A stretch of DNA of 64,000 bases, from positions 12,428 through 76,427 of the forward strand of contig JAVVEA010000018.1 of NCBI GenBank assembly GCA_032250835.1. Reading direction: 5' to 3'. This DNA is from a bacterium (GTDB taxonomy: Bacteria > SAR324 > XYD2-FULL-50-16). The position numbers and the translations under genes are program-made. Shown here one piece after another: positions 53,003 through 55,955 of the stretch (the first letter of the stretch is position 1; every line of letters starts with the position of its first letter). The notes under the pieces are model-generated. The model searched no databases and was not told the DNA's origin. It worked only from the letters and a program-made list of their open reading frames with translations.

Positions 53003-54055
53003 TTAACGGGGCCGCGCCATCGGCCAAGCCCAGAATCCCACCAAAACCGCGTAGGCTCCCCAAAGGGGGCCTAGCGGCAACTCCCAATGCCAGCCCAGCG
53101 CCAAGCACCACGCCAGCAGCATAGCACCCAATAAGGACCAGTCTGCCCGCTTTAAGGGGCGCAATGCCGCCTGGGTCTGCAAGGTGGTAGGCAGGACCAA
53201 CCCTAAGAGCAGAAAGATCCCAAAAGACAACAGTCCCGCTGGCTCAGTGACCGCTAGACCCCGACCGGTAGAAGCTAAGATCAACCCTCCCCCGGCCAAA
53301 TACCAGCCGATTTTAAGGGTCCGGACGGCCCGTACGGGCTGGTCAAAGGATCGCCCAAAGATCACTAACCCGATCCCTGAAGCCATCACGGCAAGGTCTA
53401 GGTAGAGCGGCTGTTCGGCAATCCAGCCATATAGATAGCCAGCTAAAGCCAGCCCGCCAGCGGCCCAAAGCGGCCAAGGAGTGGCCCGCCCGGTGTGGGC
53501 GTGGTAGAGCCAAGGTAAGACAAAGAAAAAAAGCGCAATCAGCGCATGGGCGGCCACCACCGAAGCGCTGAAAAAGGCATATTTGCCGCCATAAAAGCGG
53601 TCTAAGACCATCATGCCGCCCCAGTTAGCGACCACAAACAAACCGACCACTACCGGCCCCAAACCTTCGAGCCCTCCCTTACCGCGCCTGGCCCAAGCGG
53701 TCCGTGCGGCGACCAAGGAAAAGAGATAGAGGGCCATGGGGGCGGCGTAGTGACCGCCTAGATAAAAGGCCCAGCGATTTGAGCCCAGCATCCCCACCAC
53801 AAAGGCCATCAACCCGGCGCTCAACAACCAAGGCAGCGTCGCGCTCAAACGGGGCCAGACCACCGGGCCGGGGAGTTCTAGGAAGGAGGCAAAAAAGAGG
53901 GGCACCAAGAAACCCAGCGTCAGCAAATGGACCATGCTAGGCAGCAGTTGGCTCGCTGGCTGAGCCCAGAGGGGGATTCCGGAAAGGGCCCCTAAGAGCG
54001 GAGAGGCGATCAACCCGGTCCAGGCGATTTGTCGCAACAGTAGTGGTTGGTTCAT
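53003..54055 (-). CDS. Polytopic membrane protein with TM histidines (HLLTLGF motif)
   Basis: Highly hydrophobic 350 aa; MVHLLTLGFL, AAHALI. Confidence 0.65.
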   Translation of the reverse strand: MNQPLLLRQIAWTGLIASPLLGALSGIPLWAQPASQLLPSMVHLLTLGFLVPLFFASFLELPGPVVWPRLSATLPWLLSAGLMAFVVGMLGSNRWAFYLGGHYAAPMALYLFSLVAARTAWARRGKGGLEGLGPVVVGLFVVANWGGMMVLDRFYGGKYAFFSASVVAAHALIALFFFVLPWLYHAHTGRATPWPLWAAGGLALAGYLYGWIAEQPLYLDLAVMASGIGLVIFGRSFDQPVRAVRTLKIGWYLAGGGLILASTGRGLAVTEPAGLLSFGIFLLLGLVLPTTLQTQAALRPLKRADWSLLGAMLLAWCLALGWHWELPLGPLWGAYAVLVGFWAWPMARPR

Positions 54056-54261
54056 GAAGGTCTAGTTTGGGTGTGCTTCTAAGATGTCTATTAGCGGGAA
54101 TCTGGTCAAGAAAGTTGAACTAAGGAGATTGCCCTATGATGGCAATATGGAAAATATTGGCAAAAATGAGCGTAAAACAAAATATGTGAATAAATTCAAA
54201 TATATAAAATAATTATGTCTAATTTGAATGTCTCATGGGCGGAAAAAAATGCAAAAAAAGG

Positions 54262-54291
54262 TTGCCAATCGATCATATTCCGACTTATCAT
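54262..54291 (+). promoter_or_regulatory. Sigma70-like promoter with AT-rich upstream region
   Basis: TTGCCA-18-TATCAT preceded by A-tracts. Confidence 0.45.
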
Positions 54292-54347
54292 AAGGCAAAT
54301 GCCCTAGGACACTTCTTGCAGGGATTCCACTCGGAGTAGTCAAGGAA

Positions 54348-54722
54348 ATGAGAGATACCAAGGAAAGGGTTAAAGGATTTTACCAGAAATACCGGCTCGC
54401 TCGGGAGATCAACGAAATGATCCACCAACGTAACCGCGAACTAGGTGAATCGGGAGAAGAACTCTCTCGTTTGGGTTTGGGGAGCTTTTTCGATACCCAG
54501 AAGCGAGGCCCGGTATATAGCATGGCCTTGCGGCATTGGGCACCAGAGTCCTTGCTCAAACTGCGGGCTCAGTTGCAGGCCGAAACCTGCGAGCGCCGTG
54601 AAGCGCTTGATAAATTAGACTGGGGACGGCGGCAATTACGCAGCCTGTCTTCGAGCATGAATCGGAGTTATCTGTTGCAGCTGCGGGAGGTGGAGAGCCG
54701 CTTCCGCCAGCAACTTGGTTAA
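54348..54722 (+). CDS. Hypothetical basic helical protein (124 aa)
   Basis: AAGGA SD-like sequence, Arg/Glu-rich ORF, no recognisable family. Confidence 0.7.
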   Translation: MRDTKERVKGFYQKYRLAREINEMIHQRNRELGESGEELSRLGLGSFFDTQKRGPVYSMALRHWAPESLLKLRAQLQAETCERREALDKLDWGRRQLRSLSSSMNRSYLLQLREVESRFRQQLG

Positions 54723-54738
54723 ATTTTACGTATCGGTT

Positions 54739-54923
54739 CAGGACGGCCTGGCTATCAGCGCCCCCTCAGCCCCCCAGCTGGGCCGTCCTGTTTAAAAACC
54801 ACCGCTTAACGGACGGTTCTGGCTATCAGCGCCCCCTCAGCCCCCCAGCCGGGGCCGTCCGTTATCCCTTGGGTAGGTCAAGCCTATCAGCGCCCCCTCA
54901 GCCCCCAAAGCTTGGCCTACCCA
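54739..54923 (+). ncRNA. Candidate sRNA: three hairpins with an identical C-rich loop
   Basis: CTATCAGCGCCCCCTCAGCCCCC at 54752, 54823 and 54884, each closed by a different 14-18-bp stem; G-U pairs only on the + strand. Confidence 0.7.
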
Positions 54924-54929
54924 TTCAAC

Positions 54930-54958
54930 TTGCCCGCCTGTGCTACCCTTGGTAAACT
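54930..54958 (+). promoter_or_regulatory. Sigma70-like promoter of the GT2 gene (possibly leaderless)
   Basis: TTGCCC-17-TAAACT with ATG 6 nt downstream and no SD. Confidence 0.45.
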
Positions 54959-54964
54959 GGCCCC

Positions 54965-55705
54965 ATGAGCCAGCCCCAACTAAACCAGCCCGACTATTCG
55001 ATCATTATCCCAGCCTATAACGAGGCGGAGTATCTCGGCGATACTTTGGCGGCCTTGCGTTCGGCAATGGAGGCCGTTCCTTGGACCGGGGAAGTGATCC
55101 TTTGCGACAACAACTCAACGGACCAAACCGCCCAATTGGCCCAAGCAGCCGGGGCTTTGGTGGTTTTTGAGCCGCTCAATCAGATTGCCCGTGCCCGCAA
55201 CACCGGGGCCCGAGCGGCCCAGGGGCGGTTCCTGATCTTCTTAGACGCCGATACCTGGGTTCAAGCAGAGCACCTCACCGCCGCCCTGACCCGCTTAGAT
55301 AGCGATTTCGCCGGGGGAGGGGCCCTGGTGGCTTTGGACCAAGCTAGATTTGACCTAGCCTTCATATGGAACCGGTTTTCTAAGGCCGCGCAATTGGTGG
55401 CGGGCTGTTTCTTTTGGATGCGCCGTGAGGCCTTTGATGAACTCGGTGGATTTAGCGAGGCGGTCTATGCCTCCGAAGAGATCTGGTTTGCCCGCCGACT
55501 CAAAGGCTGGGCCAAGCAGCGGGGCCTGAAGTTTGGCATTTTGGAACTGCCGGTCACCACTAGCAACCGCAAAGCCCAGTGGTTTTCTCCCTGGGCCCAT
55601 TTGGGGTTGGTATTGATGCTGCTTTTGTTTCCCTGGGCGGTGCGTTATCGTTCGCTGATGGGCTTTTGGTATGATCGTCCTAAAAAGAGCTTGCCCAAAA
55701 GGTAA
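54965..55705 (+). CDS. Glycosyltransferase family 2
   Basis: SIIIPAYNE, DNNSTD, ARARNTG, FLDAD. Confidence 0.92.
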   Translation: MSQPQLNQPDYSIIIPAYNEAEYLGDTLAALRSAMEAVPWTGEVILCDNNSTDQTAQLAQAAGALVVFEPLNQIARARNTGARAAQGRFLIFLDADTWVQAEHLTAALTRLDSDFAGGGALVALDQARFDLAFIWNRFSKAAQLVAGCFFWMRREAFDELGGFSEAVYASEEIWFARRLKGWAKQRGLKFGILELPVTTSNRKAQWFSPWAHLGLVLMLLLFPWAVRYRSLMGFWYDRPKKSLPKR

Positions 55706-55763: not shown

Positions 55764-55955
55764 ATGTCCATGCAATGCGAAGTTTGTGGGAAAGGACCCA
55801 GCACTGGCTTCAACGTAAGCCACGCCCACAACAAGACCAAAAAGAGATGGTTGCCCAACTTACAGACCGTTAGGGTCAAGAAGAGCAACGGTAATACGAT
55901 GAAACTTAAGGTTTGCGCCAGCTGTATCCGCAGCGGTAAAACTGTACCCAAGTAA
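55764..55955 (+). CDS. rpmB: 50S ribosomal protein L28
   Basis: [30 protein letters not shown]. Confidence 0.97.

Follow-up and report, generated by a model that had tools for sequence, protein, structure and literature searches.

The DNA analysed here, a stretch of 64,000 nucleotides (the window) from genome assembly G000, contains three adjacent hairpins with one common C-rich loop, located shortly behind an open reading frame for a 124-aa protein. This arrangement raises the question whether the hairpins are the product of an RNA gene of their own, one half of a protein-RNA system, a signal within the surrounding transcript or a repeat of the DNA, and how such an RNA would act. The array is composed of the following elements, for which bit scores against the covariance model R1 (see below) are given in brackets.

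54739..54790, + strand: hairpin 1, a 15-bp stem and a 22-nt loop with the invariant C-rich motif (58 bits)
54807..54864, + strand: hairpin 2, an 18-bp stem including three G-U pairs, with the 22-nt loop of hairpin 1 repeated (56.9 bits)
54870..54923, + strand: hairpin 3, a 14-bp stem with a sequence unrelated to hairpins 1 and 2 and an identical loop core (53.6 bits)

Sequence inspection and RNAfold agree on three hairpins at exactly the positions named in the initial annotation of this DNA, and the loop it described as common to them is confirmed by a 20-nt word that is identical in all three. The word occurs three times in the window, always on the + strand and without a mismatch, and it was absent from all 100 dinucleotide shuffles of the window when up to three mismatches were allowed. 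Folding of positions 54723-54940 (+) yielded exactly three hairpins with -91.9 kcal/mol (z = -6.38), and none of 200 shuffles was as stable; the minus-strand fold of the array region is less exceptional (z = -3.41). The 47 pairs of the three window stems consist of 41 Watson-Crick and 6 G-U pairs, with no A-C pair and no other combination, which bears out the earlier observation that nearly all non-Watson-Crick positions are G-U on the + strand. The annotation had also stated that the stems differ in sequence yet stay paired. This holds for the pairing and for hairpin 3, whose stem is wholly different, but hairpins 1 and 2 share the stem core GGACGG/CCGTCC. Since much of their stem sequence is common, these two hairpins are partly recent duplicates; the linker between them is AU-rich in the window. 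Dispersal of the motif as a REP-type DNA repeat, which the annotation had named as an observation that would speak against its interpretation, was not seen: at up to three mismatches, the assembly (3.66 Mb, 97% complete) contains three copies of the loop word, all of them at the array locus.

A pattern search in 61 relatives revealed a tandem pair in genome G007, where the locus comprises three hairpins with the identical loop core. In genome G003, two hairpins with the loop GCCCCCUCAGCCCCC adjoin a membrane protein gene, and hairpin 3 of the window is the ortholog of the final G003 hairpin. Matches with up to three mismatches were found in 21 of the 61 relatives and were judged to be mostly chance, since a reversed control pattern matches too. 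Covariance model R1 was built from six of the eight hairpins and recovers all eight at E <= 0.004 (three in G000, three in G007 and two in G003). Among the 19 genomes of the family it matches these three only. At class level four of 88 genomes match, and the set for the phylum consists of the identical 88 genomes; the fourth match is located inside a dehydrogenase-like coding gene and was discarded as false, which gives true RNA loci in 3 of the 88 genomes of the phylum. G007 and G003 represent two other genera of the same family as G000, and the flanking proteins are only 39-68% identical across the three genera. The pyrophosphatases of G003 and G007 are 68% and 67% identical to that of the window, those of the next relatives 52-53%. 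By this measure G003 and G007 are the closest relatives, and the RNA thus marks one subclade.

The eight hairpins are 48-58 nt long. Their loops of 17 to 26 nt contain the invariant word CCCCCUCAGCC, usually as GCCCCCUCAGCCCCC, and each presents two C5 runs flanking UCAG. All 11 positions of CCCCCUCAGCC, including the UCAG between the C-runs, are invariant in the eight loops, and CCCCCTCAGCC is likewise invariant in all eight loops of G000, G007 and G003. In alignment A6, which was fitted to the structure and contains eight hairpins from three genomes, some of them paralogs, 91.7% of the stem cells are paired and eight of the nine modelled pairs have changed on both sides. The covariation score of this alignment was reached by none of 500 shuffles, and pairing fell to 19-59% when the partner columns were slid by one to three positions. 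A count made independently of A6 over the full stems of the eight hairpins gave 107 Watson-Crick pairs, 23 G-U pairs, no A-C pair and one other combination. A G-U pair is a mismatch on the opposite strand; the presence of 23 G-U and the absence of A-C pairs therefore show that selection acts on a + strand RNA, and this part of the annotation is strengthened by the covariation of the stems.

Environmental sequences were compared in four contig runs, two of which are labelled metatranscriptomic and are flagged as probably DNA. Among the runs listed as containing the stretch, none is recorded as RNA. Contig X1 retains the order ORF, hairpin 1, hairpin 2; contig X2 retains the order hairpin 2 loop, hairpin 3 and the glycosyltransferase (GT2) gene located downstream. 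One of the eight differences listed for X2 falls within 111 nt of hairpin sequence and seven fall within the 95 nt behind it. For an environmental contig of approximately 92% identity no change is listed in hairpin 3, and the flank behind it has diverged. We are highly confident that the locus is a conserved, structured RNA gene encoded on the + strand.

To describe the occurrence of the motif in public sequence, genome contigs were scanned with a 22-base two-copy pattern, which matched at least 120 stretches, almost all in high-GC genomes. The 120 stretches listed were screened for two or more copies of the motif with flanking stems of 9 bp or longer, and four passed. Among the genome-contig matches listed, one is a relative (L096), which is identical to the G007 locus; L063, L079 and L143 were rejected as tandem direct repeats. 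A 25-base pattern matched eight loci in metagenome contigs, only two of which, L168 and L169, are real, with scores equal to that of G007. The viral contigs scanned for the pattern gave no match.

Does the array belong to a known family? Scanning with Rfam 15 (cmscan) gave no match, neither at E <= 10 on positions 53500-55500 nor at the gathering score on the whole window, and the G007 and G003 loci gave none at E <= 1; a known Rfam family, another observation that the annotation had listed against itself, was thus not found for the window or for the orthologous loci. A full-text literature search for the loop motif returned only unrelated primer sequences and no description of the motif.

Comparison with C-rich-loop RNAs from other bacteria shows both parallels and differences. 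PMC4615179 describes cuckoo RNAs as sets of two to four neighbouring hairpins whose loops carry one C-rich, anti-SD-like motif and whose stems vary, and according to PMC8034643, RNase E cuts CcsR RNAs out of the 3' UTR in the mRNA for a small Arg-rich RNA-binding protein. Like the cuckoo/CcsR RNAs of Alphaproteobacteria (RSs0680, ar14, NfeR), the array consists of adjacent hairpins with one C-rich loop and free stems, the loop lengths lie in an equal range, and the number of hairpins (three here, three in G007, two in G003) falls within the two to four without multiloops used to define the group (PMC4615179). The release of some CcsR RNAs from the 3' UTR in the mRNA of a small Arg-rich protein is paralleled by the arrangement in the window (PMC8034643). 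In contrast to these RNAs, whose loop motif is CCUCCUCCC, all eight loops here carry CCCCCUCAGCC(CCC), and the hairpins of 48-58 nt are mostly above the 24-50 nt of the cuckoo matcher (PMC4615179). Furthermore, the window locus matches no Rfam model of the family, the small DUF1127 protein adjacent to the CIN1 subgroup is absent, the constant neighbour is instead a membrane protein gene, the host belongs to another bacterial group, and each genome has one locus, whereas cuckoo/CcsR RNAs form a multi-copy family.

The C-rich loops of the actinobacterial 6C RNA (B11) bind G-rich RBS sites, apparently without RNA chaperones, according to PMC6486639. Conserved C runs in stem-loops are common to this RNA and the array; Hfq was not found in the window genome, and G-runs are depleted there. 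Unlike 6C, the array has a host that is not actinobacterial, a far narrower distribution and much longer loops with two C5 runs around UCAG, and it has no Rfam match. The 6C family is included in the Rfam library. The Firmicutes have C-rich-loop sRNAs of their own (RNAIII and UCCC-loop RNAs related to it), in which the motif has been proposed to mark RBS blockers (cited in PMC4615179); their sequences and architectures are unrelated to the array, homology having been compared by Rfam scan only. Because neither the loop motif nor an Rfam model agrees, the array falls outside both the cuckoo and the 6C family. The annotation's view of an analogous but sequence-distinct RNA is thus upheld, with a cuckoo-type architecture, a different loop motif and no Rfam match. 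The array represents a small RNA family with a narrow distribution that had not been described before, of the C-rich-loop, multi-hairpin sRNA kind.

The region upstream of the array contains the elements from which the hairpins could be expressed.

54262..54291, + strand: sigma-70-like promoter, TTGCCA, 18-nt spacer, TATCAT, with an A-tract ahead (10/12 in a consensus scan)
54292..54314, + strand: conserved transcript-start region, AAGGYA-N4-CCCTAG, predicted start near 54298
54348..54722, + strand: P0001 gene, encoding a 124-aa basic two-helix protein, located between promoter and hairpins only in the window lineage

A corresponding promoter is present in G007 (TTGCCA-18-TAGCAT, at the same position relative to that of the window) and in G003 (TTGCCA-17-TAGTCT). 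The upstream A-tract and AAGGYA-N4-CCCTAG are common to all three loci; the remaining spacer is not conserved. A regulon around this 5' motif was considered and rejected, the genome holding two matches in all (the array locus and one other). In G007 and G003 the hairpins are located directly behind the promoter, with no same-strand gene upstream. Hairpin 3 of G007 is immediately followed by a 16-bp hairpin terminator with a T-run; no intrinsic terminator was found after the last hairpin in the window or in G003.

We favour the interpretation that a lineage-restricted gene for a small RNA has its functional part in the hairpins, the product being a multi-seed base-pairing sRNA analogous to cuckoo and 6C RNAs, because of the cuckoo/6C-type anatomy, the CcsR-like arrangement, the lack of a detectable Hfq and the depletion of G6 runs; with the mechanism included, we put this reading at about even chances. 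Transcription of the + strand would start from the locus' own sigma-70-type promoter at 54262-54291. In G007 and G003 the product would be a stand-alone RNA made up of promoter-proximal short leader and two or three hairpins, which in G007 is estimated to be approximately 255 nt long and to end at the strong intrinsic terminator. In the window lineage, a small protein gene would have come to lie between promoter and hairpins, so that the hairpins would form the 3' portion of an approximately 625-nt mRNA, from which a cut in the AU-rich linker may release them. Each C-rich loop is presented by a long stable stem of free sequence. By analogy, the loops could serve as redundant seeds that pair with G-rich single-stranded stretches of mRNAs, typically the RBS, and pairing would repress translation of the putative targets without Hfq, as for cuckoo/CcsR-type and actinobacterial 6C RNAs.

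Several features of the genome bear on this mechanism. The genome, 97% complete, gave no match to Hfq (PF17209). Homopolymer counts show A5/T5 runs at approximately 4.6 times and G6/C6 runs at approximately 0.47 times the expectation; with G6 runs at 0.47 of expectation, G-rich sites are rare and pairing with them could be specific. The 3' end of the 16S rRNA was searched for with a short probe, which had no match in the G000 assembly. Perfect loop complements of at least 9 nt ending 0-20 nt before candidate starts are not enriched (14, compared to 17.6 +/- 7.4 in 40 composition-matched shuffles). Pairing of the loop with 3,681 candidate start regions was evaluated with RNAduplex, and the top match (-41.1 kcal/mol) is the strongest site in the genome. 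It is a near full-length loop complement at G000:C38:155033-155083 (-), approximately 66 nt into the coding sequence for a secreted protein, where it covers a Cys-Cys-Gly-Gly-Gly stretch just behind the signal peptide. Located within a coding sequence and made up of Gly and Cys codons, it was judged to be a chance match and not a target.

Genome sites with at least 10 nt of complementarity were listed and five were examined in context. Two sites are candidate targets: a perfect 12-nt complement of the loop core abuts the ATG of a 68-aa ORF (G000:C33:1757-1768, +), and a perfect 10-nt complement abuts the ATG of a 210-aa ORF (G000:C2:57059-57068, +), which, as read from its sequence, would encode a NeuD/PglD-like acetyltransferase. 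Counterparts of these RBS-like candidates were not visible among the 11-mer sites of G003 and G007, where no orthologous context was seen. Hence base pairing with mRNAs has to be weighed against the missing enrichment of complements at start codons, the lack of a target common with G003 and G007 and the lack of a conserved site in the mRNA of the neighbouring membrane protein. An sRNA with its own terminator would be at odds with the window and G003, where none was found after the array. In addition, invariance of 11 of 11 positions, including UCAG, is stricter than needed for generic G-rich pairing. Such strictness across the whole 11-nt word points towards one dedicated partner, either a protein or one particular RNA.

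If expressed, the RNA of this uncultured group would represent an independent reinvention of the design with several hairpins and one C-rich loop known from Alphaproteobacteria and Actinobacteria, and it would support multi-G/C loop pairing as a general form of chaperone-free riboregulation. The three loci also illustrate how an sRNA gene can gain a protein-coding insert and thereby become the 3' end of an mRNA. The wider impact is limited, with the RNA present in 3 of 88 genomes searched and no target found.

A protein partner instead of an mRNA is the subject of the first alternative, according to which the two or three loops are binding sites that titrate or assemble an RNA-binding protein. 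CsrB and RsmZ are the model for such RNA sponges. The array is multivalent, every base of CCCCCUCAGCC is kept in all eight loops across three genera with flanking proteins of 39-68% identity, and the lack of both start-codon enrichment and a conserved target is in line with a sponge. However, no candidate protein was found: the only co-occurring and co-travelling gene encodes an integral membrane protein, and the small basic protein is missing at two of the three loci. The loops also lack the GGA-type motif of the known sponge class, and we know of no bacterial protein with specificity for a CCCCCUCAGCC-type loop. We consider a sponge or scaffold of this kind unlikely, with some arguments in its favour.

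The second alternative takes the small protein and the multivalent RNA as a functional pair, in which the protein would bind or process the RNA as for CcaF1 and CcsR, or would be a toxin with an RNA antitoxin. The annotation had proposed such a small protein plus RNA system, and it gave the distance between the stop of the 124-aa ORF and hairpin 1 correctly as 16 nt. In the window genome both parts lie behind one promoter, and P0001 looks like a real gene, based on its codon bias, on synonymous-biased strain variants and on a homolog with 38% identity. The codon score is +0.17 in frame, the five remaining frames range from -0.25 to -0.86, and just 0.05% of the off-frame windows from long genes reach such a value. 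Two environmental relatives show no indels and keep frame and stop, with six listed codon changes that are synonymous or stop-keeping and four that change a residue (hand-estimated p ~0.03). Furthermore, ORF and hairpins are still joined in an environmental strain with 97% identity. The protein is basic and Arg-rich (pI 10.1, 19 Arg in 124 residues), in line with the Arg-rich small RNA-binding protein from whose mRNA 3' UTR CcsR originates (PMC8034643).

The description of P0001 as an orphan needs to be qualified. It matches no Pfam, NCBIfam or PADLOC family, and no word-index homolog was present among 5.8 billion proteins; yet an exhaustive HMMER search of 1.84 billion representatives retrieved one homolog, P0002, a colinear protein of 125 aa with 38% identity (E = 2e-13). 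P0002 is a singleton from one 5-kb public contig. Used as query, it detected a 141-aa ORF in genome G010 (E = 1e-5), which stands alone behind a promoter-like site of its own, with a neighbouring gene that is convergent and without hairpins. A DUF1127 domain was not detected in P0001, nor at E <= 1 in three aligned P0001-type homologs. The AlphaFold2 model of P0001 predicts two long helices (mean pLDDT 74). A Foldseek search against the PDB gave nothing at E <= 0.001, the best match being a lengthened Rop variant (E = 2.9), and structural scores in the Atlas were at most 0.80 with no significant match. P0002 weakly matches JetA/DUF3375 (PADLOC E = 3.5e-6, Pfam E = 0.0035) and P0001 does not; this is probably a similarity of helical regions.

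Co-occurrence of the RNA with homologs of the protein, the check suggested in the annotation, speaks against a conserved system. In the whole of the G007 and G003 assemblies no P0001 homolog was found, the ORF being absent from both RNA loci, and in G010 the homolog is served by a separate promoter, with hairpins missing from its surroundings. Since RNA without the ORF and protein without the hairpins are both observed, the pairing of the two is not conserved; judged by these sequences, RNA and protein are separable modules that are joined only in the window lineage. P0001 also lacks a DUF1127 domain and a PADLOC family. Type III antitoxin (ToxI-like) RNAs are near-identical tandem direct repeats ahead of the toxin gene. 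The units of the array, in contrast, differ in their stems, and the ORF is located upstream and is missing at two of three loci. A functional protein-RNA pair is therefore improbable in our view; at most, protein and RNA would form a secondary association specific to the window lineage.

The gene that does accompany the RNA in all three genomes lies on the opposite strand.

53003..54055, - strand: membrane protein gene, encoding a multi-pass protein of 350 aa, the constant divergent neighbour of the RNA gene

Within the 19 genomes of the family it is present in G000, G003 and G007, the same three as the RNA. Gene and RNA follow the pyrophosphatase gene in G000 and G003, and in G007 they precede it; because the divergent arrangement has been kept despite the moved position, the two behave as one cassette. 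Since the RNA marks one subclade, common descent confounds its joint presence with the membrane protein. The protein has no Pfam or NCBIfam match. Its structural neighbours in the Atlas are COX1/NnrS-like clusters (TM 0.81 by query), and the predicted fold resembles cytochrome (heme-copper) oxidase subunit I/NnrS, which we regard as a lead only. H43, H102 and H170 are kept in all three orthologs. No conserved loop pairing site was found in the membrane-protein mRNA. As a third possibility, the RNA would act not as a generic anti-RBS regulator but as a decoy or scaffold, multivalent and sequence-specific, that serves one dedicated partner. With the membrane protein it would form a two-gene cassette that stayed joined through a rearrangement, and capture of the basic protein gene in the window lineage would have turned it into a dual-function mRNA/sRNA. 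Within this cassette model the loops might be where the captured two-helix protein acts, for instance to stabilise contacts between them. We consider the cassette model doubtful.

A cis-acting role was also considered, in which the hairpins would be a 3' stabiliser or terminator of the upstream message or a leader or antiterminator of the downstream glycosyltransferase gene. Long GC-rich hairpins block 3' exonucleases, there is no T-run terminator after hairpin 3, and the GT2 start codon follows hairpin 3 at a distance of 42 nt. However, the downstream gene is different in each genome (GT2 in the window; for G007 it is a DHH-CBS pyrophosphatase and for G003 ribosomal protein L28), and in G007 a strong terminator separates it from the array. 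An upstream message on the same strand is lacking in G007 and G003, and an invariant loop sequence is needless for a stabiliser. A cis element is thus very unlikely. The remaining alternative, a DNA-level repeat such as a REP/BIME-like element, a MITE remnant or a recombination site, would fit inverted repeats that are clustered in intergenic space between lineage-specific genes (ORF and GT2), but it is already largely refuted and almost certainly wrong, given that, unlike REP/BIME repeats, the array has three copies at a single locus, that 23 G-U and no A-C pairs indicate selection on one strand and that variable stems go with fixed loops, whereas a DNA palindrome family would show the reverse.

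Some observations in the surroundings of these loci may be added. The GT2 glycosyltransferase gene (window 54965-55705, +) is specific to the window genome among the three loci, and its best NCBIfam row is the arsenosugar-type TIGR04283 with 94 bits (cut-off 182). The 63-aa ORF at 55764-55955 behind it may be the counterpart of the L28 gene of G003. Three metagenome contigs (L165 10639-10765, L171 2736-2862 and L172 14100-14226) contain an array with a period of 36 nt and the same C-rich word; flanking stems are absent and the architecture is unrelated to that of the hairpin array. On another G003 contig, the stop of a 115-aa ORF, itself unrelated, is immediately followed by a lone hairpin with the similar loop AGCGCCCCCUCGGCCCC (L163 1501-1541; G003:C40:3483-3523, +; 24 bits with R1) and then by a G-run; this hairpin may be a chance match or a solitary copy.
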